A DNA stretch of 63,933 bases, filler included, from Rhizaria sp. SCN 62-66 (GCA_001724265.1; 3 parts of 3 records of this genome joined end to end with filler, not necessarily neighbours in it); one strand, 5' to 3'; shown: positions 3,001 to 59,600, numbered from the whole stretch's first letter. Notes: a model not told the origin generated them from the sequence alone. Numbers and translations: made by a program.

Positions 3001-3022
3001 CTCACGGTTGCCACGGCCGACC

Positions 3023-3055
<33 letters not shown>

Positions 3056-18457: not shown

Positions 18458-21400
18458 ATGTCGCTCCTATCTGCGGCCGCGCCCCTGCCGCCCGCCCCCG
18501 GCCCGGCCCCCGCGTCCGCCCATCTGGACACCACGTCGGGCTCGTCGTCTCCGGCCTCTGGCGCAGCCCCCGCCGGCCCCGCGCCCGCCCCCGCCGCCCC
18601 GCGCGCGCCCGACGTCTGCGGCTACACCTCCACGGCCTCGGCGGCCTGCGCCGACGCCGCCCTGTCCTCCTCTGCGACGGCGTGCGGCCTCCCCGTGAGC
18701 TGTGCCAACGTGTGCGCCAAGGGAGCTGCTGCCGTAGCTCCCGCTGTGGTGGCGGCGACGGGGCTCAGCGCGGCGCCCTCGCTCGACGCGCCCTGCCCCT
18801 CGGCCTCGTCGCTCGACGGCCAGACCGCGCTGGACCCCGGCGCCGCCGCGGGCTCAAACGCTGGCTCAAGCGCGGGCGAGCCGTCCAATGCCGCGCCGCC
18901 GCCGCCGCCGTCGCCCGACAGCGACCACGACAACGGACTCGCGACGGACTCCGCCGCTGCGAGCGCCCGCGTGTAGCCTAATCAGCCCCACCAGCAACAG
19001 CAGCAGCAGATGCCGGCGATGGTGCCGATGGCAGCCGCGGTCGCCGTGTCCGCCTCGTCCTCGGAGGCGTCATCAACGGCGTCCTCCACCTCCGACGCTG
19101 AAGCCGAGACTGAGACGGAGAACGTGGTGAACGTGAACACGTCCCCCAGCGCCAGTGGCGCCAGTGCGGCCAGTGCGGCTGCGGCGCCTGAGGGCAGCTC
19201 TGTCCAGTCCCAGGCCCAGAGTGCGAGTATGGCGACTGCGAGTATAGGTCCCGCGTCACCTGGCGCCGCCGCCGCCGCCGCCGGTGCGGTGGGCACATAG
19301 CCGCCGACGCCGCAGCGCCCGCGCGCGCCCGCCGCCGCCCCCGGCGCGCCCCTCGCGCCCCGCCAGTCCTTCACCCAGCCACAGTCTCAGTCTCTAGCCC
19401 AATCGCAACCGCACTCTCAGCAATCTCAGTCTGAGTCTATTGAGCAGTCACCGCCCGCGACTACGGCCGCGACCTCGGCCTCGACCGCGACTGCGGCTTC
19501 GGCTGTGTCTGCTTTGCCGTCACTGCCGGCCTCGCCGTCGCCCGTTGCGGCCGACTCTGCCGTCACGACCGCGGCCACTGACGCTGGCGCTGGCGCTGGC
19601 GCTGGCACTGGCGGTGCGACGATGGCGATGGGCGACGGCGACGACAGTGGTGTCGTGTATGATGACAACAGCAGCAACATCAACAACAATCACAATAAGA
19701 GCACTGACACCGCTTTCTATAGTAACAACAACTTGGACGTCCACAACTTCGCCGGTGCCACTGCGCCTGCGCCTGCGCCTGCGCCGAGCGCTGCTGCTGC
19801 TGCGCCGCAGAGCAGCGCCAACGGCAGCCTGGCTGCCCCGGCCGACAGCGGGGCGGCCCCGGCGACCCACGGTCCCCCCGTGCCTATGGCCCCGGCGGCC
19901 CCCGTGACCGTGGCCATGACCGACGACGGCGACACGACCAGCAGCTCACAGTCCTGCTCACAGTCGCTGCCACACACTCAGTCCGTTGACTCCTACTCGC
20001 AGTCTCCACTGTCACAGACCGCGACTGATACACAGGCTTCGCAGTCGCTCTCTGCGCCGGCGGTGCAGCGACCCATGCCCTCTGCCTCCGGCTTCGCACC
20101 CGCCGGACCCGCAGCGGCAGCGGCAGCGGGAGTGACCGTGAGCAGCCCCGCAGAGACTGCGACAGCGGCCGCGGCCCCCCAGTCGGTGGCCCCGCAGCCC
20201 GCGCCCTCGCCGTCAGCGCCTTCGCAGTCAGCGCCCCCGCAGTCCGTGCGGCGCGAGCGGTCGTCGCGCATCGCCGCCCAGTCCCTGTCCCCGCCGCCGG
20301 CGTACATGTCCTACGCCACCACCTCCGCGCTCGCCAACGCCGCCAACAACGCTCATCCCGCCAACAACAGCGCTAGAAGCGGTGGCGGCGACATGCTCGA
20401 CGCCGTGGCTGCGGTCGCCGGCGGCAGCGTAGCCGGCCATGTCTCCAACAACAACAACAGCAACGGCCACGCGGGCGTGGGGGCGAGCCCCCGCCTGGCC
20501 GCGGCGGCCGCGCAGCAGCCGGGCGCCGCCGTCTCCCCGGCCCCCGCCCCCACACTATCGGGCGCCATGTGCCGCGCCGCGCTCCGCGCCGAGCAGCAGG
20601 CGCTTGCGCTCTCCTCGGCCGCCGCCTCCCGCGTCGCCCCCACAATGCCCCGCGCAGCCGCCGCCTCCGCAGCTGCAGCAGCCGCAGCAGCAGCGGCTGC
20701 GGCGGCTGCAGCGGCTGCAATGCCAGCGAGCCCCGCCCGTTCAGCCTCCGCGGCCGCCGCCGTGTCGATGCCAGTGCCGGTGCCAGCCGCTGTGGCGGCT
20801 GCCCAGAGCTCCCCTGGCGCGGCCTCAGGAGCGACTCTGGGCTCCCCTTCTGCCGCCACGGCGAGCGCGAGTGCGAGCGGAGCCCCTTTGGCGACCCAGC
20901 GCATGCGCCGGTCTGCCGGCAGCCTCAACTACAAGCTCCTCAGCTCCGGGGGCGCTGCCGCCGCCTCGGCCGCCGCCGCCGTCGCCGCCGCCACCACGGC
21001 GACTGCGGCCGGGACAACGGACGACTCCGGCTGTGTGAGCTCCGTGGCCACAGAGCTCGACCAGGCGCAGTCTATTGACCGTAACGCTGGCGTCAGCTGC
21101 GTGGGCTCGCCCGCCGCGCTGCCACAGTCAAACTCGGCCGCAGCGTCCCTGGCGGCGGGCTACTATGGCGGCCATGTGGGCAGCGGCGGGGGCAACGCGG
21201 CGTCGACCCCTGGGCTGACCGCGCTCTCAGCGCTCCCCATGCAAAACTCCCTCGCTACGGCGGCGGCGGCGGGCTACTCCGCAGTCTATGGGAGTGCCGC
21301 TGCCGCTGCGCTACCAGGCTCGGCCTCGCTCCCGGTCTCACTGCCCTCCAACGCAGTCGGCTACGCCACCTCTGGCGCTAACTATGGCGCTGACTCTGGG

Positions 21401-24400
21401 CTCCCAGGCTCGGTCCCCGGCTCCGTGCCAGGCTCGGTAATGCTCTCGGCCGGCGCCTCACCGTTCCCCCTGCTCCCGGCCACCAGTGCGTTCGCTGCGC
21501 AGTTAAACAACAACAGCAACAACGGTAACGGTAGCAGTGGCACCGCTGGCGTTGCGGGCGTCATGTCGCCCGCCTCCCTGCCGTCCTCCGCGGCCTCGTT
21601 CCCGGCTCCCAACCTCCCCGCTGCTCACGGTCATCTGCCCGCAGCGCCCACTGCCGCCGCCGCGCCATCGTCGGCGGCGTCCAAGGGCCGCGGCAAGGCC
21701 GGCACGAGCAGCAGCAAGAAGGGCGGCTCGAGCAAGGCCGCCACTGCTGGTGGCAGCGCGAGCGCGGGCAAGGGGTCTCTGTCGGCCGCCACCGCCGCCG
21801 CCGCCGTTTCCGGCGCCAACGGCAACGGCACCGGCAACGGCGGTAGTGGAAATGGTAAGACTGCTGCGCTGCGCGGACTGAGCATCCACCCGCCCACCCC
21901 CTCGGCCTCCAACATGATCACGGGCGCAGGTGGCGCGGGCAGCTCGTCGTTCTTCTCCTCCCTGTCGCTGTCCCCAGTGCCCTCGAGCTCCAGCGTGGGA
22001 GGGACCTCTGGCGCGCCGCTGCCGGCGCTGGCGCTGGTGGCCACCTCGCCCTCGCTCTCGCTCTCCTACTCCTACTCGCACTCGCAGGCTCACTCCCAGG
22101 GCGTCGCCCCGTCGGGCACGCTCCTCCCCGCGCTCACCCCGGCCTCCGCGGCCAGCGCGCAGCCGGTGACGACGACTGCGACGGCGATTGTGGAGACGCC
22201 GGAGGTCCGCCGCGTGCCGGTGCTGGGCCCGGTCCACTCGAACCCCCGGTGCCCGACCGCGATCGCGTCCGTCGCCACGGTCAGCGCGCCGCTCGCCGCG
22301 CAGCAGCACGTCCCCGCCGCCGCCGCCGCAGCAGCAGCAGCAGCAGCGGACTTGGCCGACAGCGGCGCCGCCACTGCCGCCCCGGGCGCTGTGACGGCGA
22401 CAGTCAGTGCGACGGGCGCTGCCGTGCGCTCCTCGGCGCCCCCGCGCACCGAGGACGCGCTCTACCGCGACTGGGTCACCGCCCCCGCCGTCGTCGCGGC
22501 GCTCGCGGCCAAGGGCGGCTGGGTCCACGACCGGCGCCACCTCCTCGCCCGCCGCGCGCGCTGTCAGCCCGCCTCTGCGACCGCGGCCGCCACGCTCGCC
22601 GCCGCGCCGCGCGTCGTCGTCGTCCCGGTCCCGCCGCCGCCGCTGCCCGCCGCGGTCGCCAGCGCTAACGCCGCCGCCGCCACTGCCGCCGCCACGGCCG
22701 CGCAGGCCCAGGAGGCGCTCGCCGCCGCCATCCAGCAGCAGGCGGGCAGCAAGAACAACTCAAACAGCAGCAACAGCAACAGCAGCAATAGTACCAGCGC
22801 GAGCAGCAGCAACAATAGCAGTGTGAGCAAAAAGGTCGCCGCTGCGACCGCGGCCGCCCACGCCGCCGCGGCCGCCGCCGAGGCCGCCGCGGTCCACGCC
22901 GCCAGCGTCGTCGCCGCCGCCAACGCGGCCGGTACGGCGGGCAGCGCCGCGACCGCGGTGCCCGTGTCCGTGGTGCTGACGGGAGGCGCGGCCGCCAGCA
23001 GGGCCCTCGCGGCCGTCGCCGCCGTCGCGGCCGAGGCGCGGGCCGCGGAAGACGCCGCCGAGGCCGACGCCCTTGCCGCTGCCGCTGACGCCGCTGGCGT
23101 GACTAGCGAGGTGACCGGGAACGTGGCGGTGTACGGGGAAGCGTGGGATGTGCTGCCGACGCACAGGGAGCTGCGCCTCGCGGCGCGGGCACACCGCCGC
23201 GCCGCCCGCCTCGCCGCCGCCAGCGCCGCTGCTGCTGCTGCTGCAACCACTGACGGTACGCTGGTGATGAGTGATTGTGCGAGTACCAGTGCCGGTACCG
23301 GTGAGGTCAAGAGTGAGTTGGCCGGTGCTCTTCCTATGGGCATGACCGACTGCGACCGTGACGCCGCCACTGCCCCCGCCGCCACTGCTGCGCCTGCCTC
23401 TGCTGCCCCTGCTGTTGCTGCTGCCTCTCAGGCCGAGGTCAAGCAAGAGCAAGAGCAGATCACGCTTGACTACACCAGTGTTAAGACTGAGGCCACTGAG
23501 GCCGCGACTGCCCCTGTTGTTGTCGGCACTGCGACTGCGCTGCCGCTGGAGCCCAGTGAGCTCAAGGCTGAGCCCAGCTCCTCCTCTGCCATCGGCAGTG
23601 TGAATGCGGTCCTCACCAGCCCCGTCCCGAGCCCCACAGAGCCTTTCCCTCCGGTCTCCAACGCCGCGCCCACGGCCAGTATTGCTGCCACTGCCCCTGG
23701 GACGGCGGCGGCGACTGCAGTCAAGTCCGAGACCGCGACCCCTCGGTCTGCTGCCGACCAAGTCGAGGACGACAACGACGACGCCGACGAGGAAGAGGAG
23801 GAGGAGCGCACGGACGACCTGTTCTACCAGCAGCTGCACATCCGCGACGAGGCGCGCCTGCAGACCGAGTGGGACGCCATCCTCCTCAAGCACGGCCTCG
23901 CCCAGCCCCCGCAGCCGCAGCCCGCCACTGCCCCCGCGGCCAACGGCCCCAGCGCCAGCGCTAGCGCCGGCGCGGGGCGCGTGGCGGCCGTCGCGACCGC
24001 TGCCGGCAAGGCCACAGGCCGCAGCGCTCCCGCCGCCGCCTCTGCGGCCACTGCCGCAACGGGGGGCAGCGCTGCCGCGGGCGCGGGGTCGCGGCCTGCG
24101 TCGCGCCCTGGCTCGGCCAAGGCCAAGGCGTCCCCCGCGTACTCGCGCCCGCCCTCAGCCTCCGCCTCCGCTAACTCCGGCTCTATCGCTGCGGCTGCGG
24201 CTGGCACTGCCGCGGCCAACTCTGCCGCCCCCGGTGCCGGTGTCGGTGCTGGCGCTGTGACCACTGTGGTCCCAGCGGGCTCTGGCGGCGTCCGGTTCTC
24301 AGCCGTGCCCGCCGCGCCCCTCTTCAGCGCCACCAGCCCCCCCAGCGGCGGCAGCAATGGCTACAATAGCTACAATGGCTACGGTGGCTACAGTGGGAGC

Positions 24401-24650
24401 GGCAGCGCGGCGCAGCAACACCGTGCGCTGACGCGGCCCTCGACGCCGCGGCCTATGGTCGACCTCGACCCCCTGCCCACGGTCACTAGCCTGCCCACAG
24501 TCGCTGGATGCGCCGCTGTGGACACCGAGCCCACGGTCCCTCTGCCGTTCACTGCGCCAGTGTCCGCGCCTGTGGCTGGGGCGGATGCGGTGCTCTCAGT
24601 GACGACGAGCACCGCGACCACCGAGACCGAGGGCTCCAGCTCCAGCGCCT

Positions 24651-24711
<61 letters not shown>

Positions 24712-26092
24712 CTCTGTGACCCCCGCACCAACGCAGACGCAGACTGAGTTGGCCCCGGTCGCGGGTGCGCCCGTGCTCGACTCGGCCACGGGGAGCCCTG
24801 TGTCCACCGACCAATCCCCCGCCTCTGCGAGCGACTCAACTGGAGCGGCGACTGGGACCGCCGCCTCACTCCCCGCGACTGCTGCAGCAGCAGCAGCTCC
24901 TGCCCCTGTGGCCGCAGCCTCATCCTCATCCTCATCGACCGCAGCGACTGCGAAGGCGACGGCAACTAATGCCCCGCCACAGACTGTGCCCCCGTCGACG
25001 ACGATGGTGTGGTCCGGCATCACGGAGCCCTGGCCGTCGCCGGCCTGGGTCTACAACTACCGCGTTTCGCCGCCCTTCGCCGCGCCCTTCCTCTTCCCGC
25101 CGCACTACATCCGCCCCGCGCACATGCTGCCCTCGGCGCAGCTCCTCGCGCGCCTACAGGCCCTCCACGCGCACTCCTCCTCTGCCGCAGCCGCAGCCGC
25201 AGCCGCAGCCGCTGCCGCCGCCGGTGCGACCGCACCGTCCACCGGCACACAGTCCGCGGCGGCCGCATCTCAGTCCGCGCTGGCGGCCTCGGCGGCCTCA
25301 GCGGCGGCGGCGGCGCAGGCCTCGCTGGCCGCGGCGGTAACCCAGGCCGCGGCCATGGGCGTCTCGCTCGTCCTCCCTGGCGGGCCCGTCGCGGCGCACA
25401 CCGCGGCGCCCGGAGCGAACACCAACGGATGCGCTGGCTCCGCCGTGTCCGGTGACGCGGCCGCAACCGCCGCGACCTCTGCGGCGACTGCGGCGGCGGG
25501 CAAGGCAGGCAGCAGCGGTAACGGCCACGGCACGCGCTCTGCTTCGTCTACGGCGTCGGCGTCTTCTGCGGTCGCGGCGTCCCCATCCAGCCTTAACACG
25601 CGCCGCAAGCGCGCCGCCGACGGCGACTCCTCTGCGGCGGCCAACGGTGACGACGACGGCGACATTGACAATGACAACGACGCCGGTGACACAGGCGTGG
25701 CCGGCGCGCGTTGCCACCGCCGCGGCGGCTCTGGCACTACGCCCTCCAAGGCTTTGTCAAACAGCAGCACTAGCAACAAGTCGACTCCTGCCAAGAGCAC
25801 TGCGACTGGCAAGCGCAAGGGCGCCTCGTCCTCCAGCAACAGCAACAGCAACAGCAGCAGTTCCTCGAACAACACGGCTGCAAACGCCAACTCTGGTGCG
25901 AACGGCAGCGGCAACGGGAACGGTATGATGCCGCCGCAGATGATGGCCGCCATGCAGGCGCAGATGGCTGCAATGGCGCGCTCTATGGGCATGACGATGT
26001 CGTTCCCCGGCGCCGACGCGGCCAACGCCAGCAGCGGCGGCAGCAAGGGAAGCAAGAGCAGCTCCAACAGCAAGGGCAAGCAGAGTCAAAGT

Positions 26093-26129
<37 letters not shown>

Positions 26130-26800
26130 TGCAGCAAGGCATGATGATGTCTCCGGCGATGATGGCGCAGTGGATGCAGCAGATGCAGCACATGCAGCAG
26201 CAGATGCAGCAGCAAATGGGCTGGACCGCGTCGTCACAGTCGTCTGGCTCTGAGATGACAGAGCAGCAGCAGCAGCTCATGCAGCAGCAGCAGATGCAGA
26301 TGATGATGATGACTATGGGCGGCATGAACATGGGCAATAACATGGGTATGCACAACATGAACATGATGAACGGCCATGGAAACGGCAACGGAAGCAGCAA
26401 TGCTAGCAAGAACACTTCTGGCATGGCCAACTGCTTTCCTGTCGCGCAGCCGTCTCCGTCCCCCACCGCCTCGTCACATTCGCAGCAAGCGCAGTCGCAG
26501 TGTCCCCCCTCTCAGTACGGCTACCCGTCGGCGCAGCAGTGCCTGACCCCGCAGCAGCAGCAGCAGCAGCAGCAGCAGCCGATGATGACGATGTCGCCGC
26601 GGTCGCCCTCTCACGGCCATGGCCAGTCCGGGGGCTCGCCGTTTACCGGCGGCGAGACCAAGCGCCGCCGCTCACTGGCATATGGCGCGGACGGCAACGG
26701 CAACGCCGATGATGATGATGACGACGACGACGGCGGCGACGGCGCGGAGCACAAGGGCCGCGGCAAGCGCGCTGGCGCCGCCACTAACAGCAAGGTCTAA
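18458..26800 (+). CDS. 2780-aa low-complexity nuclear protein with a split PEHE-like motif (MSL1/KANSL1-like); contains two in-frame TAG codons (18974, 19298)
   Basis: Track ORFs 18281-18976, 19010-19300 and 19505-26800 share one frame and are separated only by TAG codons, with coding-like sequence across both junctions. Motifs IVETPEVRR and EERTDDLFYQQLHIRDEARLQTEW; Q/M-rich C-terminus; ends in TAA. Confidence 0.7.
24653..24715 (+). repeat. (TCTGGC)n coding microsatellite encoding an (SG)10 tract
   Basis: Perfect tandem hexamer visible in the sequence. Confidence 0.95.
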
Positions 26801-27681: not shown

Positions 27682-30600
27682 GTGTCCACCGCTGTGGCCG
27701 TGGCCGCCGCGGCCGCGGGCGCCCGCGACGGGCCCGTGCTTGCCGCGCTGCGGCTGCACCTCTTGGCCGAGCTGGCGTCGTTGCCGGCTCCCGCGACCGT
27801 GGCGCTCGTTCCCACAGTCGCAAGCTCCGCTCACGGGCACTCTGCTCACGGTGGCTCCGCGCGGTCGCTCACTCTGCGCTCGCAGTCGTCTGGCTTCGCC
27901 CAGTGGCGTGCTGCTGTCGTACAATGGCAGCAGCTGCAACAGCAGTCGCTCGGCGGTGGTGTGACCAGTCTGCCCCCGCTGCTGCCGGCGACCATGCCCC
28001 ACGTGCCGCTGCTGCAGAGCTCCGGCCTCTTCCTCGCCGCGCCCGCGCTGCCCGCGCCCGGCCGGTGCTTCGCCGCGTCGGCCTCCTCGGTCGCGGTCGA
28101 GTACTCCACTACGGCCTCGGCGCTCGTCCCCGAACACGGCCGCGCGATGGCGCTCCGTAGCAGCAGTGCGTACAGCATGAGCAAAGCTGACTATGACGCG
28201 GACGCGTTCTCGAGCAATCAACTCGTGTTCAATGCCAACACAAGCGCGCTGCGCAACGCCGTCGTGCCGGGCACTGCTGGCGCGGTCACGTCTCTGACTG
28301 CGCTCAATACCCACGGCGACGACCTCGTCTGCGAGACTGCCGCCGCCGCGACCGCTGGGAGTGCTACTATCGCTAAGATGGGCGACGACTCTACGAGCGG
28401 CCTAACTTCTGCTGCGAGCGGCTTGGCCTCTTTCCTCCCCGCAGCGCCGACCGAGGTCGCCGTGCACCGCCTGTTGACGCCCCTGACGCCCCTACAGCGC
28501 GCCGCCACGCGCCTGGCGTTACTCCGGGCCCTCAGCGAGGTGAACTTTGCCGACCTGGCGCCGCTGCTTCCGCCCTCGACGCTGTGCGACCTTGCGATGC
28601 TGTACTCCGAAGGCGCGGACGTCGCCGTGTTCGTGCCCGCGCTTGAGCGCGTGGCGCTCTGGGCGCAGTCGCTTTCCTCGGGCGTGGCCTCAAGTGAGAA
28701 CAGCGATGCGGGGGCGAGTAAGACAGCGGCGGGAGCTGTGCGGGATGACAACGGGGACGCGACTATCAATAACAACGAAGATGACGACGCCGATGTCGAC
28801 GCCGAAGTTGACGAAGCCGAGGCTGACATCGACGACAACTCTGGCGAAGGCGACGATGGTGACGCTCAGATCGAAGATGAAGACGAGGACGAGGACGAGG
28901 AAGGCGGCGCCGATGATGGCGACGACGGCGACGACGAGAACAACAGCCGCGGCACGAAGCGAGCGAACGGTGATCACGACGACGACGACGACACTCGTGA
29001 CGTTGACGCTGATCACTCTGGCGTGGCCATGCCCGCTGCCACCGGCAGCCGCGCCCGCGCCCGCGCCACCGCCGCCGCCGCCGCCGTCGCCGCCGCCGCC
29101 GCTGGCTCGGACGCGCTCTCCCGCCGCTCGCGCCGCGTGTCGACCGCTGCCGCCGGCTCTAACCCGTCCGCCACCGCTGGCTCCGCGTCGGCGTCGTCGG
29201 CAGGCGCTGCATCTGCCTCCGGCTCTGGCTCTGCTGCGGCTGCACCTGCAGGGGCAGCGGCGGGCGCCAGTCAGTCTGCCGGCGCTGGCACTGGTGCTTC
29301 GGGTGCGAATGCTCTGCTCGACAGCGTCGAGGCGCTTGACGAGTACGGCCTGCCGCTGATCTACACGGGCCGCTCCAGCGCCAGCGACGGGTCTGACCCT
29401 GGTCGCAATCATGTCAGCGGCCGCGGCGGCAGCAGCGGTCGTGGCCGTGGCCGTGGTCGTGGCCGTGGCCGTGGCCGCGGGCACGGGCGCCCTGGGACGA
29501 CGAGCTTCCTCTCGCACTTCGCAAACGCGGACGTCAACGGCAGTGCCGGTGTCGATGAGTTTGGCCACAAGCTGGTTGCTGCTGCCCAACAAGGCGGGGA
29601 GAGCGGAGAGCCGGTCAAGCGCCCCCGCGGCCGTCCCCGTGGCAGCGGCAGCGGCGCCCCCAGTACGTCTGCTCCTGACGCTGATAACGCCGACGCAGAC
29701 CCCAGCAGCTCCGCCGTTGTCGCTGCGGCCCCCAAGCCCGTCTGGCCTCCCCAGGACCCCACCGCCTCCTCGGACGTCGATCTCGCTCTGGCCGGCGATT
29801 ATGACGACGACGACGCGCTGGCGGCCGCGGCGCCCGCCTCGCGCGGCCCCGTGTCGGCGGCGGCGCTGCGCGCGCACCTGTCCTCGCGCCGCGGCCGCGC
29901 GCTGACGCTGGCGCTCACTGAGCTCATCGCGACGCTGCGCGCCATCGCCACCCACCCGATGCTGTCGCCGCACGGCGCCGGGCCCTCGCTGCTCGGCTTT
30001 GACGGCGCGCCGCTGAGCCACCTGCCAGCCGCGGCCGCGGCGGCGCTCGAGCCGGCTACGGGCAGCAGCGACGACACGGCGGCCGCAGCGGCCGCGGCGG
30101 CGGCCTCGGCGGCCGCGGCGGCTGCGGCCGACGCCGCTGCAGGCAAGGCCAGCCCCGAAGCCGTGGCTGAGGCAGTGCGGGCGGCTGCGGCGGCGGGCCG
30201 CGCCGCTGCGAGGATCACGCAGGCTCGCTTCGACATCATCATGGGCACCCCGGGCACTGTCAACGCGGCCGCCAAAGAGAGCGTGGGTGCGGGCGCGAAC
30301 GAGAACTCGCTGATTGACGTCGACGCGCTCAAGGCGGCGACAGTGGCGGCGGCGGAGGCGGGAGGTGACGAATCTGCGGAGCAGGGCTTCGTCACTGTCA
30401 ATGGCTCCCGGGTCAGCACTAAGGGCCTGCACTGGCGTCACCGGGTGAAGCTCGAGCGCGCAGCCGCCGCGGCCAACGCCGCAGGCTCTGAGGTCGTTGA
30501 CAACGACGAAAGCAGCGGCGCCAGCGCCAGCGCCAGCACCAATGCTGGCGGTGCTGGCCAAGGGCTCGTGGGTATGATCGCGCTCGCGCGCCGCAGCGGT

Positions 30601-35041: not shown

Positions 35042-35073
<32 letters not shown>

Positions 35074-41000: not shown

Positions 41001-42003
41001 GTCAGCAGAACTGCTCTCGGACTTCGGGCTGTCTCAAAGTCAGGCTGCGGCCGTCGCGACCAAGCTCAACAGCGCCCGCCTCATCGGCTTTGCCGGCGGG
41101 CTGGCCGCGGCAGCGGGCGCATTGACCGCGGCGACTGAGACCGCGACCAAGATCAACGCGAATGTCGCCCGGGTGATGCGCATGCGTGCCTCCGCCGCTG
41201 CCTCCGCCGCCGCCGCAGCCGCTGCCGCCGCCGCTGCTGGCTCTAACCCCGACGGCGTTTCGCTGCCTCCTCTCGCCAGCCCCGGGACCGGGTCACCCAG
41301 CAGCAGCAGTAGCTCTGCTGTCTCCGGCAGGGCTGCTGCTATGGCCGCTGTCGCCGCCACCGCGAACGCGACGCCTGTGGTCGCTCACGGCTCGCGTCAG
41401 GCGGCCATCCTCGCTTCCGGCGCCGCCGCCGGTTCCGGCTCGGACTCTGCCACGGCTGCGCTATCGGCGGCGATGCTTGCCGCCTCGATGGCGGCGACCG
41501 GCCGCAGCAGCAACAGCAACCCCGTTTCCAGCCCCGTCTCCGCCGCCGCAGGCCCCCGCCCCGGCGGTGCTAGTGCTCTCGGCGCCCGCACCGGCGCCAG
41601 CGACATCTCGCTGCTGGCAGGCACGATGGCCGCCCAGATCGCGGCCCGCGCCGCCGCGGCCGCCGTGTCGGCCGCGGGCGCCGCGGGCTCGCGTGCGACT
41701 GCGACCGAGACACTGGGCGCGGCGCTGAACCGCGGGCTGCGGCGACCGGCCGAGCCCGCGGCGGCGGCGGGCGGCAAGGGCAAGAAGGCCAAGAAGGCCC
41801 GCGGCTCCGACAGCGACAGCGACAGCGAGTGGACTGCGAGCGATTCCGAGAGCGATTCCGACGTCGAGTACGGCGGACGCTACGGCCACGGCCACAGCCA
41901 GGCTCAGGAGGAAGAGGAGGAGGACGATGACGCGTACTTCGAGGACGGCGCAGGCGTTGGTGCTGATGGCCAGAGCGACATGTACTACGTTGTCGACAAT
42001 TAA
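27682..42003 (+). CDS. Very large chromatin protein (5'-truncated): degenerate SNF2-type helicase C-lobe, AT-hook, PHD-like finger, SAM-like domain
   Basis: Open frame of 4773 codons ending in TAA. SNF2-like motifs in the correct order: PTEVAVHRLLTPLTPLQR, LRAIATHPML, SGKFLALDNLI, RKLVLLT, AVAAFN, TGADAIVV, PVYELVTEGSVEEEL. AT-hook KRPRGRPRG at 29617-29643; VRCQSCALWY...WHCLNC; WKSEAVQSWL...LSGDDLLLLTSAELLSDFGL. Confidence 0.7.
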
Positions 42004-42312: not shown

Positions 42313-45300
42313 TCAGGGGTACCGTCCAGCGCCACCGCTGCCCGTCACTGCGCTAGTGACATGGGCGCCCGTGCTGTCTTCGAAGCCCTTGATCGGCTTT
42401 CCGTACATGCCCTCGACGACCGGCGGCACGCCGAACGGGCGCGACTCCTTGTACAGGTCGCCCATGCTGGGGTCATACCCGCCGTTGTTCATGCGACCCA
42501 GCATCGCGTTGACGCCCTCGCCGCCGCGCGAAGGCTGCGTCGGCCGCTCGCCGCGCGCCAGCTGTTGCATCTGCGCGGGGCTCAGCCGCGGCGCGCCGAG
42601 CCCGTCGACGCCCAGCGGCGCCAGCCGCGCCTGCGCCTGCGCGATGTACCGCTTCGTGTCGGCCTGCCGCGCCTGCTCCAGCAGCGCGGGATTGCCGCCT
42701 TGGTACGGGCTCACCGCGCTGCCATCGCTATAACTGCGCGCAGGGCCGCCGCCGCCGCTGTAAGGGCCGCCGCCGTAGGGGCCGCCGTTAGGGCCGGCGC
42801 CGCCGCCGCCGCCGTTGTAGTAGTTGGCCGCGGCTGCATAGTTGGCCGCGGCCGCGGCGGCTGCGTAGGGGCTGATCGGGGCGGCGGAGGCGGGAGCTCC
42901 GTACTGAGCCTGCGGAGGGTAGCCGTAGCCGGGCCCGTGGGCCGCGGAGGCCGGGTAGCCCTGTCCCTGCTGGTGTTGCTGCATTTGCTCCTGCAAGAAC
43001 TGCTGCTGCAGTTGCTGCAAGTAGGCGCGCTCGTCAGCGGTCATGTTGCTCGTGTCGATGCCGAAGTCGTCCAGACTCATGTTCATGTGCTGCTGTTGCT
43101 GCTGCTGATGTTGATGCTGCGGAGGGCCCCGCGGCATGGCATGCCCTTGCCCTGGCTGCTGCTGTTGCTGCATCGTCATGCGGCGCATCTGGTCCCGCTC
43201 CCGCTCCTCAGCGGTCTCGTCGTGCACGGCCACGATCTCGCCCAGCTGCGCCATCTGCGCGTCCGTCAACCTATCGGTGTCGAAGCCGCGCGACTTAAGG
43301 AAGCCGTCGACGACGGCGTCGGCCTCCTGCTCGGAGCGCGGCAGCGGGCGCGAGGCCAGGAAGCCGTCCAGGTCGCGGTACAGCGCGAAGACGGCGTCGG
43401 CGCGCAGGTTGCCGCTGCCTGGGAACACGAAGCGGGGCGATACGCCACCATTCGTGGGTGCAGACGCAGAGGCAGACGCAGACGCATACGCGGTGGCAGC
43501 GGCATTGTTGGTGTCCGTCGACTTGGTTGTAGCAGACTCGGATGGTGAGCTAGAAGCGTTGCCCTGAGTGTCGCTAACCTTAGCGACAGCGGCATCAGCA
43601 GCGTTGGCGCCCGTGCCCTTGCTGAGGTAGGCCGCGACGTTGGCCTCCGTCTCGGCCGAGAACTCGCGGAGCTCGCCGAGGCTGGCCGCGGACCGCGCTG
43701 CGATGGCCGCGAGCTCGGCCTCGTCGTCGTGGGAAAGCGGGCCCTGGGCGCCGGAGCTCGAGCTCGCACTAGAGTCGGGGACTGCAAGCAGGGGGGAGGC
43801 GCTCACGAAGGATGTTAAGTCGTCTTTGTTCGAAGTTGAGCCGCGATCAGCTGACGCAGCGGAAGCTGTCGCTGCAAGCTCAGCAGTGACAGTTGCATCC
43901 TTGCTCGAATTGGCAGGAGGAGTGTCAGACTTCGAGTCCGTCTTCGAATCAGTCTTAGCGTCAGACTTCTTGCCACGGCTGAAGAAGCCAAAGAACCCAG
44001 AGCCCTTCGACTTGGGCTTCGCACCCTCAGTGTCACCGCTGCTACTGTTCACCGCAGAGCTCGAGACAGAGCTGGGCATCTATGTGCTGATGCTGCTGTT
44101 GTTCGCCTTGGCGGCGTACGCGGCGGCGGCGGCCTTGCGCTTCGCCTCGGCCTCCGCCGCCCTCAGAGCCCGCTGCCGCTCCTCCGCCTGCGCGCGCCGC
44201 TGCTGCTCCTGCTGCAGCACACGGTTCCACTCGTCCGCGAAGCCCGCCGTGTCGCCCGCCTTGCCGCGGCCGCTCAGCACCCAAGCCCGCGCCACGGCCC
44301 GCATGCGCCGCCGCTCCTGCTCACGGTCGCTCGCGCCACTCTCCGTGTCGGCCGGAGTCGCAGCCGCGGTCGAGGACTCGTGGTCATGGGAACCATCCCC
44401 GTTTGCACCACCGTCGCGGAGGCTGTCGCGCGCGCTCTTGCTGACGGCGGGGCTCGAGGGCTGCAGAGGCTCCCCGCGGCCGCCGCGGCCGATGGCGAGC
44501 TTGCGCCAACCCTCTGCGACGCGGTCGCGCATCGAGGTGCTCACGGCGCCGGGGGCCAAGTACGTCTCGAAGGCCGCGCGCGCCAGGGCGGGCGAGTGGA
44601 TCGCCACGGCCGGCGGCGGCGGCGGCGGCGCGCGCGGCGCGAGGGAGGGCGCCGGATACTGCAGCCGCAGCAGGTCCGCGTCCGGGTCGGCCTCGAGCAC
44701 GTCCGGCAGCGACTGCGCCGCGCCCGCGCGCTGCTCGATCGCCAAAGCGCGGTTGGCGTTGCGCCAGTCGGCCACCGTCACCGTCTGCCCACTCGCAGTG
44801 CCGTCTGCAGCGTTGTTGTTGCCATTGTTGTTGTTGACGGGCAGGGGCGCGAGCTTGGGCGGTGTGTACGCGCAGCCGCGCGGGAGCGTGACCAGGAGCG
44901 AGCCTTCGGTGGTCCACGTGAAGACGACTTCGTCGCCGCGCTGGTACTGCTTGACCGACTCGACGACGTGCTTGAGCGCAGCCAGAGCCGCCGCGGCGCC
45001 CGCCTCGCCCTGTGCCAGCGCCGCCGCCAGCACGCGGTCCTCGTCGGTCAGGATCTGCGCCTCGATGTCGGTCACGTCGTCCTCGTCCAGCTCCACACTC
45101 GCCGGGTCCACCACGCCCAGGGTCGGGTCAGCGCGCTCCATGGCCGCCGCGATGGCCGCCTGCCGCTGCGAGGCGAGCTGACCGAAGGCCGCGGTGCGCT
45201 TGGCCGACACGGCGCGCGCGCGGGCCAGCAAGGCCTTAACGCGCGCGCCGAACGAGGCCTCGAAGCCGTGTGAGAGATGCACGCCCTTGGTCGGCTGCAG

Positions 45301-46167
45301 GAAGACGAGCCGCATGGCCTTGGGGAAGAGGGACGTCTGAGCGAGCATCCAGTGCGAGTCGGGGTACTTACAGTCTAAGGGGGTCGCGGGGTTCTCGCTC
45401 AGGGCCGTGGCGATGTCGCGCGGGATGTAGAAACCGGCGGTGTAGGCGCGCGCGAGGCGCAGATACGAGAACCCACCCATACTCCTAGAGCAGCATCGCG
45501 AAAAGCACAAAAGTAGGGATATGTCGATGAGATTATGTGGTATTGATCCAAAGCTTGAGAACTAGATATTCGTAACGTGTTTAAGTCATAATATAGAGCT
45601 TAATGTAGATATTTTTCCGAAAATGCGGAGATGTACGCACCTGAGTCCGACGCCGACGAGGCTCATCTGCGCCGTCGCGTCGGGGTCCACGTGCAGCCGG
45701 CAGTGCTGCGGGTAAGTCACGCCCGTGGTGGGCTCCGTCGCCTCGGGCTGCCAGTCGCGGTACGACGCGTCGGCGACCAGCGACCGCACGGCGGCCTCCA
45801 CCGCGGGGTCGGAGCTCTCAGCGTCAAAGCGGGCGAATACGCTGTCCGCATCGTCGTCAGAGACAGGCTTGCTCTCGTCTTGGGCGTCGGTGTTCTCGGC
45901 CGCGAGGGAGGTAAGCGCCGCGAGCGCGAAGGCCGCGGAGACGCCGAACGCCGCGTAGGACGCATTGTTGCGGTGGAAAGAACGCTCGCGGCGGCCATCG
46001 TGCTCAGAAACGAGCGGGAGAGCCTTGCTGGAGGCGGTCGTGGTGGTGAGGGCACGAGAGGGCAGAGACGAGGACGGCAGCAGAGCGGAAGCCTTGCGGG
46101 AAGCGCGAAGAAGGCATCGCTGCGCTGTATAATTAACAGCAAGAATTGACTTCACTCGGGTAAACAT
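42313..46167 (-). CDS. Chalcone-isomerase-fold (Aim18/Aim46/FAP-like) protein with likely mitochondrial presequence and long C-terminal extension; exons 46167-45641 and 45484-42313 with in-frame TAG at 44082-44080
   Basis: CHI-fold motifs EPTTGVTYP, LVGVGLR, AYTAGFY, GDEVVFTW and IHSPALARAAFETYLAPGAVSTSMR. The N-terminus is Arg/Ser-rich and lacks acidic residues. GTGCGT...TAG intron. The in-frame TAG is followed immediately by a further 588 codons ending in TGA. Confidence 0.72.
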
Positions 46168-49129: not shown

Positions 49130-49777
49130 ATGCCGGTACGTCGTATGGCTTGTAGCCTTGTTTTGTGACTAATCTCTTTGATTTTAATTTCGACGGGGCT
49201 TCGCATCCGCTTCTACGTGCCTAACAAGGCCTGCGGAAATGGCTCTGTGGCCCCCACCACTCTGTCTCGCCCTCGGCCCCAGTGCTCACCTCCCGCCGCT
49301 CTCCCCGCCCCGCTATGCGCCTTCTCGCTTCCCTGCAGATTGACCACGACCTTCTTAACCCCCCCAAGGCTTACGAGGCCAAGCTTCACAAGCTCACCAA
49401 GCTTGTCCAGAAGCCCAACTCGTTCTTCATGGACGTCAAGTGCCCTGGCTGCTACCAGATGTACGTCCCCCCGCTTTCATTCCCACGCTTGACCCCCTCG
49501 TCGACCTCGCGATATTCTCTTTCGATTTGTGGAGCATTGCCAAGCTCTTATTTTCTTTTTTTGCACCCTCGCATTCCCTGTTTGCTCACTTCTTCCCCCT
49601 CAATTATCCCTTTTCCCGACCCTACTTCGGCTCCGCACCTACCACCACAGCACCACCACCTTCTCGCACGCCTCCTCTGTTGTTCAGTGCACCGGCTGCC
49701 AGACCGTCATTGCCTACCCCACCGGTGGCAAGGCCAAGCTCTCCAACGGCTGCTCCTTCCGCATCAAGGCCGAGTAA
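49130..49777 (+). CDS. RPS27: 40S ribosomal protein S27 (eS27); 3 exons (49130-49135, 49339-49460, 49651-49777)
   Basis: Spliced product [11 protein letters not shown]...[68 protein letters not shown] donors; the stop is TAA. Confidence 0.97.
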
Positions 49778-50525: not shown

Positions 50526-53500
50526 ATGCCTACCCCGGGCCATCCCGGCCAAGGTGGGCACCAGCCTTTCCCCCCGCCGCCGCCTCCGCCGCCTCCGCCG
50601 CCGCCATCGACGTCATCCTCGGCCCCCGCAGCTGCCCCTGCCGTCTCCGACGCCGCCGCCTCAGCCGCGGCCTACGTGTCCCGTTGCGTTGCCCTTGCGG
50701 ACGCCGTGTTCAGCGCCGCGCCCGCCGCACTGCGGGTCCGCGTTGCAGCGGCCGTGGAGCAGGCGGCGCTGGCCAAGATCAAGACGCTTAAGGCCAGGAA
50801 CATGATCTCGCTTGTCAACTGGGGCAAGGAGCCGCTGGTGTCGGCTGTCGACCTTGGGTTTGAGCCGCCGCCGCTGTTTGTAGCCCTCAGCAACGACGCC
50901 GCTGACGGCAGCAAGAAAGATAAGAAAGACAAGAAGGACAAGAAAACCGACAAAAAGAGCAAAAAGGGTGACAGCAACAGCAGTACGGACACTATCTCTG
51001 AGCAAAAGCAGCCTTCTAATGCCCCACATACGCAAAACGCTGACTCTGCTACAAGTTTGAGTGCCCCAGCCTCTGACTCTGCGTCTGCGTCTGCGTCCGC
51101 GTCCGACTCCGCGTCCGCCGACTCTGCCCCTCTGGTGGCGCAGCCGTGGCTGCCCGCGGCCCTGCAGCGGCCGACGGTCAGAGAGGACCAGTGGCAGCGC
51201 CAGGCGCTCCAATGGCAGCAGAGCCAGCGGCCCGAGGCCTGGGTCTGCGAGCCCCACGTGACTGTGAGCAGCAAGGTGACCGTGGGCAGCGAGGTGACTG
51301 TGGGCAGCAAAGCGACCAGTGAGAAACCTAGCATTTCTGCCACAAGTGAAAATGTTCCTGCTCAGAACCAGTATCAGCAGCAGCATTGGCAATGGCAGCA
51401 GCAGCAGCAGCAGCAGCAGCAAGGCTACTATGCCGCAGCAGCTGCTGCTACAGCCAACGGAGCCCCTCCTCCGCCGCCGCCACCGCCGCCGCTGCCGCAT
51501 TTGATGTCTCAGCATCCGCCCCCGCCCCCACCGCCGCCGCCTTTGCCGCCGGGGCCGTATCCGGGAGGCATGGGTCCCGCGGGTGCCGTTGGCTATAACA
51601 ACTATAATTACAATTATAACTATGGCGCCGGCGCCGGCGCCGTCCCTGGCTACCCGTATCCTTATAACGCGCCGAATATGCAACATGCGAGCTATATGAG
51701 TGGCTTTTACAATCCCCAGCAGCAGCAGCAGCAGCAGCAGCAATACCAGCAACAGCAGCAGTACTATCCGTATCCGCAGCAGCCGCAGCAGCCGATGGCT
51801 ATCGGAATGGCTGGCTACAATGCCACGACTGCCGTCTCGAGTGCGAGCGCAGTCGGTGCCAATCGTGCTCCGCTGTTTGGTCCGACTGCTCCTATCCTCG
51901 GCAGCAGCAGCAGCAGCAGCAGCGCTAAAGATGCGAAGACAGCTAAAGAGAAGAAGAAGGACGAAAGCCATGCCGCGTCGTCGAGAAGTCAAGCCGCTAC
52001 TGGCCAGAAAAAGCGTGCCTTTGGTGACACGATTGTCGCCTCTGTGCCTCTCTCCAGTGACGACGACGATGACGACGACGATGACGATGGTGAATCCTCT
52101 TCTCGCAACACCAACAACAAGAACGATAAGAGTTACAACAACAAGCGCGGCCTGAGCATCAACACAGGGAGCTCGTCAGCTTCGCCCCAGAAAGCGGCGG
52201 CCAGCAGCTCCAATGACAAGAGCTCCAAGAAAAGCAAGAAAAACCATGCCGCTGCCGCCGCCTCGTCCTCGGCCGGAAGTCAGGCCGCCGCGTCTGCGTT
52301 CGTAAATCAAGCCGCCATCGCGAGCCGGCTGCAGCGCTTCGCAGAGCACCACAACCTCAGTGCCAGCGGTGTGAGCACTCCCTTGTCGCTGTCGCGCGCC
52401 GGCTCTGCCGTTGGTGCTGGCTATAACGCGGGCGAGAACGCAAGCGGGACCAATGCGCAGTGGTACCTGCCGTCGCCGGTGCCGCCATCCTCTGCCCACA
52501 GTCACTCTGCCCTCACAACCACGCTCAGCTCACGCACGAACAGCGTCAGCCGGTTCGACACGAACGGCTACGACTACGACGGCGACGGGGATGCCTCCTC
52601 CGCCGCAGCGCCCATCGTGGGGACGTCGCAGGAGCTCGAGAAGAAATACCTCCGTCTGACAACCCTGCCGGACCCGTCGAAAGTTAGGCCGCTAGCCGTG
52701 CTGCGGCGCTCGTTTGCGCTCGTCCGCGAGCGTTGGCTGCAGTCTGGACTCGGCTACAGCAACACCTCCGCGAACACAACGGCGACGAACGCTGCTCATG
52801 GCGCCGCGTCATACGGCTACAAGTGGGTTGGCGAGCAGCTCAAGACGATTCGCCAAGACATCAGCAGTCAACATTTGCAGCACACGGCCTTCAGCACTCT
52901 CGTTTACGAGACACATGCGCGCATTGCACTTGTTGTCGGAGACTTGAGTGAGTTCAACGCCTGCCAAACGCAGCTCAAGCGCAAAGCAGCCATCTCTCAT
53001 ACTAACGAGGCGGGGGCTGCGAAGTCCAAGACGAAGTCGACAGACTCTAAGTTGCTGTCCAAGGCCAAGGCAAGTGACCAGGGTGAGCCACATCAGCAGA
53101 GTTGGGCAGGTGTCACGGACAACTTCATCGAGTTTACCTGCTACCGCATTATCTACTACGTGCTCTCTGAAGACACGGGAGGCCTAACTTCCCTGCTCCG
53201 CGGCTTGACTTCTGACGCCCTCGACCACCCCGCAGTGTTGTACGCGCTCGCGGTCGCGCGCTCGGTGCTCAGCGGCGACTATTTCACCTTCTTTGACCTC
53301 TACACGCGGGGCCTCGCAGTCACCGTCAACTCCACTGCTCAGAACAGCAACAGCAGCAGCAGCCTCCAGGCATCTCAGTCCCAGTCTCAACTGCAATGTC
53401 AGTCGCACACTTCTCGGCTGCTGCCGGTGCCAACGTACTGCAACCAGCCGTTCTTGCTGCACTGTCTGACGCGCAAGCTCGTGACCCACGTGCGCTTCAC

Positions 53501-55343: not shown

Positions 55344-55605
55344 TCAAGGCGACCAAGGTGCTGCAGCCACTGGACATCACGATCTTCAGGCTATATCGTG
55401 ACGCACTCCGGAAATTCTACCAGATGTACACGCGTGAGCTGGTGGCGGAATTAAGAAAGCAGCCGCAGCCGCAGCCGGTGGATCTACTGCGGACAGTATC
55501 ATGCTGCGAGTGCGTGCGACCCAGTACGGTCTGTCACTGACCCGAGCGCATTCCGTCATCGACGGGTTCATGATGATGGTTGGCTTGACCCGAGACCAGT
55601 TGTAA
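55344..55605 (+). mobile_element. Remnant C-terminal part of a pogo/Tigger-type (DDE_1) transposase, frameshifted
   Basis: ATKVLQPLDITIFRLYRDALRK matches the TxxLQPLDxxxF third-catalytic-residue motif of DDE_1 transposases. A shifted frame continues SVIDGFMMMVGL, resembling the downstream I..F...G motif. It lies at a contig edge. Confidence 0.6.
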
Positions 55606-56625
55606 ATGCGTGTTTTTAAGCGCAGTATTATGTGACTATGTTGTTTTATTCTCAAACTAATTCCGGGTATAAGGACAAAAGCGAGAAGAAAGCGGCCACA
55701 GAAAGGCCAAATGAGGTTTTTCGATGCAATCGATACTAATGTGGGTTAGATCATAACTAAACACTATTACTTAGCACAAAACTAGTTTAAACGATTAAAT
55801 GCGTAGTTTTATTGAAAATAACGTTGATTCATAGTGTCTTGGACAACACACAAAACCGGCCTTGGAGGGTCAGCCAGACTATTTTATCGGTCCAGTGGCT
55901 GCCGTTTTGTCCCCTGCTCACGGTCACCCAGCGACGTCGCCTTCTTGACTCATCCCAAAATAAAGCATCACATATGCTTTGAACAGGCGTATTTGTAGCG
56001 TATTATTCTCATGTGCAACAAAGCTGTGGAGGTACTATGACGATTATTACAAGCTGTGTACATAGACGAGTAAAAGTCGCGGCAAAGCGACGTCACCTCT
56101 AGCTCAGCCGCTCTCCTTTGGGAAAGAAGGGGCCTGAATTCGAAGTAAGGGGGTAAGGTTGGGAGCAGCTTGGGCGACCTTTTTCACTTCACAACTCTAA
56201 CGTTGAAACCTGATTAAAACTCGTTTGCAATAGTTAAACAAGACTACTATAATTATGTTCCACCCAGTTTCCCACATTTTATCTCCCTTTCTGCGACCAT
56301 GAGCTGCTAATTCACGTCTCCAGACTGGCTGGCCCTACTATCCGACCAGAGACATCACCCGACGAGTCTCGGGAGGACATAAACGCGTGAACCTTCGACA
56401 CCTTGCCAACATTGATACTGTAACGTTTCATTCACTTCGCGCACTCACCTTTTGCTCCCTTATTTTATCTTAATCCTGCATTAGAAGCGCTCTGTTTGGC
56501 ACTTTCCTCCGAATTGGATACCTGCTCGAGTGAAGGAACAGACGACTACTTTCCCGTGATCAATTGGCTTCACCAACATTACGATAATTATATCTACAGT
56601 CTGCTGACAGACCCAAAGCTGGGCA

Positions 56626-59600
56626 ATGTTTTTGTGGTCAGTAGCTCTCTTGGCATTTTTTGCTATCTGTAGCAGCACAGCTGTTTCAACTGTGCAAGGC
56701 ACACCCACTCCGGTCAGCCTTTCCTTCTCAGCAACGCTTGCATCGACACTATGCAGCCCAGCATATGGTTACACATCAGTCTCCGTGTCTGTTTTTGTTC
56801 CTGGCCTTGATGTTGCTTCCGACACCACAGTAATGCTGGACTGGTCTTGTCCGCTTTAGAGTCAACTCAATCTTGACCTAACGGAGGCTGCACTTACCTC
56901 TGCTTCCGCCGCTTGTATTGTCGTTGACTCGACGTTGCCTGACACGCTCCGTTGCATGCGTGTATCTCGTGCCGCGTTCATGATCAAGGACATCCGCGTT
57001 TTGTTTAGAGCGTTCCGCGCTTTCAGGGAGACTACCGGCATTTTGGCGGCGTGTCTCGGTGTCAAAGTCAATGGCGTCGTGGCTACAGCCGATGCCACGG
57101 TCGCAGACGCCCTTTTACTTGCTCCTCCCATATCAAATGTCGCGTTCGCTCTCGAGCGCAACAAGGATGCGAGTACCGAAGCAGTCGGTGGCAATCGCAA
57201 CGCCGCCGCATACAGCTCTGTAACGCTTACTGTGCGGGTAACGCTGCCAGCACGAACTGAGGGGATCACTATTGCCACCGTGTTCAGCGCCGATGCCGGA
57301 TTAGCGTTCGACACCAACGAGACACAACTCTTTATGATAAAAAATGACGACAAAAACGGCAATAGCGAGCTTACAGCATGCAAAGTTATGCGTTTCGCCA
57401 GCTTGCAAGGTGCAGGAGTAAACTGTACTGTTTTATTTGCAGGACAGGTTGTTTTTAGAATGACCCCAATTCCAATTAGACACAATTATGAGAGTAGCAT
57501 TCAGAGTCTCACGAAGTCAATTGGTCTGTTCCTCAATGGCAATGCGCTCGATGCATCCGTTTTGAGCGATCCTATGTTCTTTGAGGCAGGCTCAGATCTA
57601 AGACACGAACATCAAAATGCTCGCGCGCAGCAAGAGTCGGCGGTGCCACATGCGCTTTCATCGCATCATCTGTTCCAAACGCAAGATCACCCTTACCGTT
57701 TTGAAACAAGACCTTCGATGATTGTTCAACCGGAAGAACCCGAACCTATTCCTTCGCTCGATTGTCCCCCGAATTGTTTCACGTTTGTTTATTCTGTGTC
57801 ACACGAATTCTCAGACATTGTGGCCTTGAGTATCGATAATCGCAAGCGCATGGGTACACTTGTCTTCTCTGCGACTGCGACTGCGACCCGATCAATAACA
57901 CGGCATAAGCTGACGGCGAACAAAGCGTGCTCCCCATTTGTCGATTTCAGTCAAACTACTGTATTTCTGGTAGAACTTGGGCACCCATGCGGTCGTTACT
58001 CAGTCTCTCAATCTGAAATCGTCATAGATGTCGGCGCCACAACAGAGGGACAACCGTCATCATGTGGACTTTCGTCAGTTTTAATCACGGCACCCACAAA
58101 TAATATCGGATATGTGCTATTTAAGGACTGTATTACTTATACTGAGATGGCTGGAACAGTAGAGACTGGAAATACGGCAAGTCCATGGAATTCTCCGATT
58201 GACGCGACGCCCGGCCGAGCTTCGTTTCAATTCGAATTTGACCGGGCCAACGGCCATGACTACACACGTAGTGTTGCTCCAGTACAAAGCTTCTCTCGCC
58301 GCTTTGACCGATATCTCATTAGTACAGTGCAGCTTCGCGGTATGATTCTGAGTAGCACCCAACCAGTATCAACGAACGCTGTGAAGATTGCAATTGGAGG
58401 CAGCTGCAGTGGATATTACACCATGACTACGGATTCGTGTGCAACGCAAGTGTCTTCATTACAATTTGCAATCCCTTCTGGAAGCTCGATATTTTCTCTG
58501 ACACCCATTACGCTTTGTGTGCGGCCTACACAGGTTATATCGTCGCTTCCGACTTCTTGCTTTACAGTGACGTACAATACTTCATTCACCATGTCAGCCA
58601 TAAACTCGAGTGATGCCATAACCGGCAGCTCGTTTGGTGCCGTTATGAACCATCACATTGTCAACGCGACTGCCATTAATGTCCAAAACAGTCCGGAGCT
58701 GACAACTTTTTCTGTCACACACGAGTTTTCGTTCCTTTTTTCCATTCCACCGACAACGGACACGATTACCCTTGGAAATCCGAAAACTTGTTTATGTCCC
58801 GTTGCCAATAGTGTTGTCACGACGACTACCGCAACAGCTTTCTCACAGGCACCAAGTTGTTCACTCACGTCATCCATGTCGACATCAATAGATGTGAAGT
58901 GCGGCATGTTACCGGCTAACATCTGGCAGGTTTTTACAATTCAGTGCCCATCAGGGTTCACGCAGTCGTTGATGGATGAATGTTTTGTCGATATGGGTGA
59001 GGGTATAATTCCGGCAACTGTATTGATTAATCCCCCATTTTCTCTTCTGCTGTTCCATTATGATATGATCTTTGTGGAACCCCCCAGTAAAGTTATCACT
59101 GTTGGGATATTGTCCGGTCGCACTGTCGACAATATCGACTCGAGCTCCAGTCATATTGAGGAAACACCAACACAAGTCATGCTCGGACTCTGGTTTTTTT
59201 TCATAGCTTTGCCACAGTCCTCATTTACGCTGACTATTGCCTCTGGGCCACCGTCAGATTTTGCTTTTAATAGCAACACAACAGTCGTGCGTTCTGCCAG
59301 CTTCATGACGTGTGCGGTTGTGTCTAAAACGCAGTACACGTGTCCGCGCTTTACTTCACGTTTTGCAAGTGTTGCGCGCGCGTTGATATTCCAAAATCTT
59401 AGCGAGCCTTCGGGTCCTTGTTCATCACCCTCAACCAGCATGTTCAGTGCGTCTGTTTCCTTCGGTGCGACTTCAATGGCCTATTTCATCAATCATCCTA
59501 CAGAAGTGAACTTTGCATTTTACATCGAGAACAAATCCGGCGTCCAACTAGATGGAGCCGACTACATTGACTCCTTCGATCTATATTTTCTCCCACTTTC

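Follow-up and report, generated by a model that had tools for sequence, protein, structure and literature searches.

The window analysed here is a stretch of 63,933 nucleotides (nt) from Rhizaria sp. SCN 62-66 (GCA_001724265.1), in which three contigs (1-27581, 27682-55243 and 55344-63933) are joined via runs of N and the spacer ttaattaattaa. Its central feature is a set of four in-frame TAG codons distributed over three large genes, none of which matches a Pfam family. Gene 1 (18458..26800, plus strand, approximately 2,780 codons) is a low-complexity, Ala/Ser/Pro/Gln-rich gene with its first ATG at 18458 and a TAA at 26798. It carries TAG no. 1 as codon 173 (18974..18976, plus strand, context gtg TAG cct) and TAG no. 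2 as codon 281 (19298..19300, plus strand, context ggc aca TAG ccg); the first in-frame ATG downstream of the latter lies at 19622. Gene 2, on the minus strand, consists of exon 1 (45641..46167, with the ATG at 46167 in the context acc ATG ttt), a putative AT-rich intron of 156 nt (45485..45640, GTGCGT...CTCTAG) deduced from the sequence together with a family motif, and exon 2 (42313..45484, with a TGA at 42313-42315). TAG no. 3 is codon 644 of its approximately 1,232 codons (44080..44082, minus strand, context agc aca TAG atg ccc). Gene 3 (56626..63933, plus strand, at least 2,436 codons) continues past the end of its contig, is rich in Ser, Thr, Ala and Val, contains repeated Cys modules and shows a GC content at third codon positions (GC3) of 0.50; TAG no. 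4 is its codon 78 (56857..56859, plus strand, context ccg ctt TAG agt). An earlier note on this DNA had placed the four TAGs at these positions and in these frames, and both were found to be correct.

The four TAGs are exonic, coding-like and in frame with very long downstream open reading frames (ORFs), which continue without a frameshift for 2,499 codons in gene 1, 588 in gene 2 and at least 2,358 in gene 3. The long ORFs of contigs 1 and 2 contain 0 TAA, 0 TGA and 3 TAG in 13,724 codons, and that of contig 3 contains 0 TAA, 0 TGA and 1 TAG in 2,435 codons; the absence of TAA and TGA interruptions, previously noticed in the TAG-bearing genes, holds for every other long ORF as well. Since long open frames arise easily at 75% GC, coding signal was tested instead of openness, using codon-usage models trained on the other ORFs for genes 1 and 2 and on the body of gene 3 for gene 3. 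All segments flanking the TAGs prefer frame 0. On contigs 1 and 2 the preference amounts to 0.27-0.78 nats per codon; on contig 3 the 77 codons before TAG no. 4 favour frame 0 by 0.19-0.29, inside the range of in-frame chunks, and controls from untranslated regions (UTRs) score about 0.1 or negative. The coding scores on both sides of the TAGs match those of intact genes, and in every tested segment of genes 1 and 2 the sense strand exceeds the best antisense frame.

The regions upstream of control genes are AT-rich and hold all three stop codons. On contigs 1 and 2, GC-rich composition resembling coding sequence begins at or just before the first ATG, and true 5' UTRs are AT-rich. A chance open frame or a UTR is ruled out by the codon models together with these stop-rich upstream regions. 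An antisense artefact is likewise ruled out by the advantage of the sense strand and by gene 2, whose homologues lie on its strand on both sides of the TAG. One antisense frame of a GC3-rich gene would, by our working, contain hardly any stop other than TAG.

The three introns seen locally measure 156-203 nt, start with GTACGT or GTGCGT and have a lower GC content than the exons. Their signals were controlled on the gene for ribosomal protein eS27 (49130..49777, plus strand), which also served as a control for the terminator (TAA at 49775). Both of its introns (49136-49338 and 49461-49650, GTACGT...CAG) open with GTACGT, and the joint of the second (190 nt, GT..AG), 49460>49651, is present in RNA contigs of X5 and X7; eS27 is also the best-covered gene in the RNA runs. 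No GTRNGT donor was found within 400 nt upstream of any of the four TAGs, and codons ending in G or C continue to the codon before each TAG. Introns holding the TAGs were rejected on the missing local-type donors and on this codon bias. The location of the TAGs inside real coding sequence is thus borne out by the codon models, the strand comparison and the donor scan.

Independent data are available for TAG no. 3 (44080-44082), the only site compared. A DNA contig from another study (X3 record 4) spans 43053-44599 with 0 differences over 1,547 nt, the TAG included. The ORF calls P0010 and P0001 end exactly at this TAG, with the full ORF on three contigs and a fragment on a fourth, and the site is stable across studies and years. 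A stretch of contig 2 was present in at least 11 runs from 7 studies among the matches listed; these are metagenomes from bioreactors, wastewater and activated sludge, and they include one poly(A) metatranscriptome. No RNA piece across TAG no. 3 was found among the matches listed, where the piece from X4 stops at 44057. Against the 2025 population (X4, X5), four indel sites were compared (40915, 43787-43791, 42249 and 54984): those in coding frames involve 3 nt and 5+1 nt, a total of 6, those in spacers 5 nt and 2 nt. Such a pattern is consistent with purifying selection acting on the frames, in gene 2 also beyond the TAG. Chance frames, UTRs, introns and assembly error are poor explanations, because both flanks are coding, donors are absent and TAG no. 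3 recurs.

Protein searches for homologues of genes 2 and 3 returned no match, part of them being saturated by low-complexity words; no locus related to the TAG genes was found in the metagenome, genome or viral contigs searched, and an exact look-up of six ORFs around the TAG sites found none in the collection. When gene 2, read through, was compared by HMMER with 1.84 billion representatives, nine matches at E ≤ 0.001 were obtained, none of which spans the TAG. Residues 31-365 are homologous to P0004 and others (P0002, P0003, P0005), and residues 906-1061, in the region of the last ~156 residues, match P0006 (E 1.8e-5) in the same frame as the upstream homologues. The N-terminal domain may be chalcone-isomerase-like, to judge by a motif and sub-threshold Pfam matches (E 0.056-0.064). 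P0004 and P0006 both come from contigs of 5,492 nt, which are probably one and the same, and the relative that carries them is GC-rich. The tail of P0004 and gene 2 after the TAG do not align significantly (77 of 300 shuffles reach the score), and by eye they share a collinear ERAYL / polyAla-Tyr / Gly-rich resemblance.

In gene 3, the N-terminus upstream of TAG no. 4 (MFLWSVALLAFFAICSS...) appears signal-peptide-like in our reading of the sequence. The TAG stands two residues past a CP motif, within a module of the form CP..22..C..13..C; modules with this Cys spacing are seen again at residues 722 and 1438. When the N-terminal segment is compared with an internal unit, the alignment runs through the TAG and scores 61 against a null of 43±6, a value reached by 5 of 300 shuffles.

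Among the neighbouring features, two intron-free ORFs of 2,816 codons (1-8451, plus strand) and 4,773 codons (27682-42003, plus strand) extend past the 5' ends of their contigs; the latter has no Pfam family, and giant low-complexity genes like these dominate the window. Other genes on contigs 1 and 2 carry FYVE plus ankyrin, ankyrin, SAC3/GANP and methyltransferase domains. These two contigs are eukaryotic, given the eS27 gene with introns and the joint present in RNA contigs. Their coding DNA has 65-85% GC, with a GC3 of 0.74-0.88 in long ORFs, and their spacers and introns about 30-55% GC. The nearest matches of the eS27 piece are plant ribosome chains, and the nearest Atlas clusters of the SAC3 domain are labelled Chlorophyta or Ascomycota. 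Contig 3 has about 48% GC, and its one giant ORF is gene 3. Met-Pro opens 3 of the 5 placed starts on contigs 1 and 2 (eS27, the gene ending at 47414, and SAC3), compared with 19 of 188 Met codons overall. ATG CCN stands at the starts 48605-48607 (minus), 49130-49132 (plus) and 50526-50528 (plus), and also at the ATG 44077-44079 (minus) after the gene 2 TAG; it may be a preferred initiation context here.

Eight gene ends were placed firmly, of which three are TGA (8449, 42313, 54393) and five TAA (11235, 26798, 42001, 47414, 49775). The tally of 11 ends in the earlier note (8 TGA, 3 TAA, 0 TAG) was accurate as to the absence of TAG but was not reproduced in its other figures, which were miscounted. 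The TAA at 11235 is itself doubtful, with a donor-like GTACGC just before it. In this ankyrin gene the long ORF reaches its TAA immediately after the donor-like CAG/GTACGC (11235-11250, minus strand), and a coding-like ORF on the same strand (10632-11126, minus) comes after approximately 100 AT-rich bases; judged by sequence, the gene probably has a further exon with a TGA end at 10632. A C at position +4, the weakest termination context, follows two of the four in-frame TAGs and one of the eight terminators, that one being the doubtful end.

For TAGs no. 2 and no. 3, two of the three on contigs 1 and 2, the preceding codon is the rare ACA, as part of GCACATAG. ACA accounts for 64 of 13,724 codons (0.47%), and its pairing with TAG has a nominal p of 6.5e-5 for a context chosen post hoc; such sharing may point to a context effect or to a mutational hotspot. 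There are three copies of the octamer GCACATAG in the window, at 19293-19300 (plus), 44087-44080 (minus) and 8571-8564 (minus), the third copy being in the spacer after the first gene. No 3' motif is common to the four TAGs, and a CARYYA-like motif is absent. Nor is there an unusually stable RNA structure in the 120 nt downstream of any TAG (z = -0.12, +0.53, +0.49 and -1.36); downstream RNA structure was rejected as a readthrough stimulus, as none of the z values, from -1.36 to +0.53, stands out.

The reading that we favour is that UAG may be decoded as an amino acid at the four sites, either as a very rare sense codon or as a leaky stop, and we assign it a probability of roughly 0.4. Ribosomes would then pass the four TAGs, and UAA and UGA would terminate. 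In favour of decoding are the coding flanks, the long frames beyond the TAGs, the 3-nt and 6-nt indels in coding DNA, the Cys module and N-terminus of gene 3, the homologues on either side of the gene 2 TAG, the missing donors, the recurrence of TAG no. 3, the lack of TAG among the eight firm ends, and the C at +4. Complete reassignment, for which a dedicated tRNA-CUA and an altered eRF1 would be expected, is a rather unlikely form of this reading, and an ambiguous or leaky UAG is about equally unlikely. Between Gln and Leu, our guess for the amino acid is Gln, which is one step away. An early reassignment, with UAG uncoupled from UAA and captured as a sense codon making up <1.5% of Gln-type codons, is a rather unlikely variant; at such an early stage UAA would still be a frequent stop despite a GC3 near 0.85.

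The rarity and distribution of TAG, together with several features of gene 2 and of the window, weigh against decoding. If UAG is taken as Gln, contigs 1 and 2 have 3 TAG against 414 CAG and 71 CAA, or 0.6% of putative Gln codons, and contig 3 has 1 TAG against 32 CAG and 42 CAA, or 1.3%. With the expected count derived from the TTG/CTG ratio (59/462 on contigs 1 and 2, 28/34 on contig 3), a neutral synonym of CAG would give approximately 53 TAG on contigs 1 and 2 and approximately 26 on contig 3, where 3 and 1 are seen. GC bias, which had been offered as a possible cause of the scarcity, therefore does not explain it, least of all for contig 3, which has no GC3 bias. Only four in-frame events are available, in approximately 16,400 codons and in 3 of approximately 9 genes, those being giant ones; no in-frame UAG occurs in the eS27, SAC3, FYVE/ankyrin or ankyrin genes or in the 4,773-codon ORF. 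The statement that no TAG falls at a conserved position holds, as none of the four aligns to a homologue. A search for tRNA genes or Rfam matches in the 64-kb window found none of any kind, and the window holds no eRF1.

The statistics of stop codons point in the same direction. Of all stop triplets counted over 5.8 kb of non-coding DNA, 21% are TAG; at this share, the absence of TAG from all eight firm ends has p=0.15. Among one-step nonsense changes the share of TAG is 0.68 on contigs 1 and 2, where GC3 is near 0.85, and 0.375 on contig 3; under random nonsense, the joint probability that all four stops are TAG is 0.12. That TAG alone interrupts the frames had been taken as a sign of recoding, and it is instead expected from codon usage. 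The three genes do lie on three contigs, as had been said, and the accompanying idea of one shared organism is unproven: with a GC3 of 0.50 against 0.74-0.88, contig 3 may come from a different organism than contigs 1 and 2. Taken together, the earlier proposal of UAG as a rare sense codon keeps its support from the TAGs in coding sequence and from the lack of TAG ends, and is weakened in its points on exclusivity, on the stop tally, on the cause of rarity and on a single organism, as well as by the 5'-proximal sites and the ATG-CCC after TAG no. 3.

The leading alternative, which we regard as possible though short of probable, is that the code is standard and the TAGs are genuine, tolerated stops. 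Gene 1 and perhaps gene 3 would then carry recent nonsense changes in dispensable N-termini, with a start at a downstream in-frame ATG, and gene 3 could be a dead copy. The TAG of gene 2 would be the natural end of a protein consisting of the N-terminal domain, and the adjoining ATG-CCC would start a second polypeptide, by gene fission or by termination followed by reinitiation. Three of the four TAGs fall in the first 300 codons, which make up 11.5% of the codons examined (p=0.0055), and the TAG ATG CCC of gene 2 resembles the Met-Pro starts of eS27, the gene ending at 47414, and SAC3; the 5'-proximal positions and the ATG-CCC are each compatible with real stops and initiation further downstream. 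The distant N-terminal relatives P0005 (425 amino acids) and P0003 stop shortly past the core domain, some 130 residues short of where the TAG lies, and in the closer relative P0004 (976 amino acids, N-terminal) and P0006 (262 amino acids, C-terminal domain) are separate ORF calls. A standard code also agrees with the extreme rarity of in-frame TAG, including its absence from the two giant 5'-truncated ORFs (7,589 codons together), and with the 0.68 share that makes TAG the expected nonsense codon in GC3-rich genes. By our arithmetic, at least about 75 strain differences in 19 kb would bring a few nonsense changes, if such changes are tolerated.

Several observations speak against genuine stops. 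Three or four independent events would have to fall in approximately 9 genes and 64 kb, all of them nonsense and none a frameshift, and ahead of the TAGs the coding signal shows no decay. More generally, features of a pseudogene are missing, there being no frameshift, no in-frame TGA or TAA and no loss of coding signal, with which very recent nonsense changes are still compatible. With a genuine stop, the gene 3 product would lack the signal-peptide-like N-terminus as well as part of a Cys module. A cistron spacer of zero nucleotides, as in gene 2, would be unusual here, where spacers elsewhere comprise several hundred AT-rich bases, and the gene 2 TAG is the one found unchanged across studies and years. 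The boundary between P0004 and P0006, after 976 amino acids, lies elsewhere than the TAG of the window; the differing boundaries could be independent interruptions of one gene. Decoding of UAG, for its part, requires a sense codon that is unusually rare and biased towards 5' positions, and a chance ATG-CCC after one site, and the rough likelihoods of decoding and of a standard code are close. What probability remains belongs to mixtures, with different causes at different sites.

Removal or alteration of the TAGs in RNA, either by excision as the last bases of introns that lie in frame and are short or non-canonical, or by U-to-C editing to CAG, is very improbable. Every TAG ends in AG, the gene 2 intron itself ends in TAG (ctctag/g), site 4 could be a unit of 30 nt, a multiple of three (GTAATG...TTTAG, 56830-56859), and an RNA contig spanning a TAG is absent among the matches listed. 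Such introns would differ in length, donor and GC content from the three seen, would lack the GTRNGT donor and would have to coexist with a codon bias that runs up to each TAG; excising the 30 nt from gene 3 would delete a CP motif that the internal modules keep. We know of no nuclear U-to-C editing of such a kind. Assembly or sequencing errors or chimeric contigs are the least credible explanation of all, conceivable given a metagenome assembly as the source and a comparison with other data that covers TAG no. 3, and opposed by the exact recurrence of TAG no. 3 in another study's run, by its presence in ORF calls on four contigs and by ORFs of up to 14 kb free of frameshifts, which point to a very low error rate.

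Were UAG decoded here, the list of independent cases in which UAG and UAA differ in meaning would grow by one, and this would be the first among them from a GC-rich non-ciliate of an engineered ecosystem. An early reassignment would represent an early stage caught in nature, in a lineage with no known case, and its low usage would allow codon capture and the ambiguous intermediate to be tested against each other on a natural intermediate. Standard gene callers would truncate or split the proteins of this organism, and the ORF calls P0001 and P0010 do already stop at that of gene 2, TAG no. 3. Should the TAGs prove to be ordinary early stops, the finding would be routine, yet it would serve as a caution: where genomes are GC3-rich, an accidental stop is nearly always TAG, and frames interrupted only by TAG are therefore weak evidence for a code change.

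Three kinds of known systems offer a comparison. Like nonsense alleles or young pseudogenes, the present stops are isolated and mostly 5'-proximal, in family-less giant genes of low-complexity or surface type; unlike them, they come with no frameshifts, with an intact codon bias and with one type of stop codon only, and one site is stable across studies. Ambiguous and readthrough stops are represented by the dual-meaning stops of the Condylostoma and Blastocrithidia type and by the UAG readthrough motifs of viruses. The likeness is that a stop is passed while the frame continues, and that two of the three TAGs on contigs 1 and 2 share GC-ACA-TAG; the differences are that a CARYYA-like 3' motif and a stable downstream fold are missing and that UAG is never seen as a terminator.

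Nuclear codes in which UAG is sense and UAA and UGA are stops have been described for Iotanema spirale (Gln) and the rhizarian exLh (Leu), with gene ends of 104 UAA and 15 UGA in Iotanema and 56 UAA and 15 UGA in exLh, and with 204 in-frame UAG in 126 genes of Iotanema (PMC5304391). Further cases are the phyllopharyngean ciliates Hartmannula sinica and Trochilia petrani, with UAG=Gln, and TARA metagenome-assembled genomes with UAG=Leu; in phyllopharyngeans with a UAG code, an internal UAG is found in 78-91% of genes, and the codon accounts for 18.5-31.8% of Gln codons or 6.5-10% of Leu codons (PMC11687900). In these lineages the codon occurs in most genes and at many conserved Leu or Gln positions, with suppressor tRNAs in some, a difference that counts against decoding in the window. 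The genome studied here also differs in being very GC-rich and not ciliate-like. What it shares with the uncoupled UAG codes is that UAG is the sole in-frame stop and that the firm gene ends are five TAA and three TGA.

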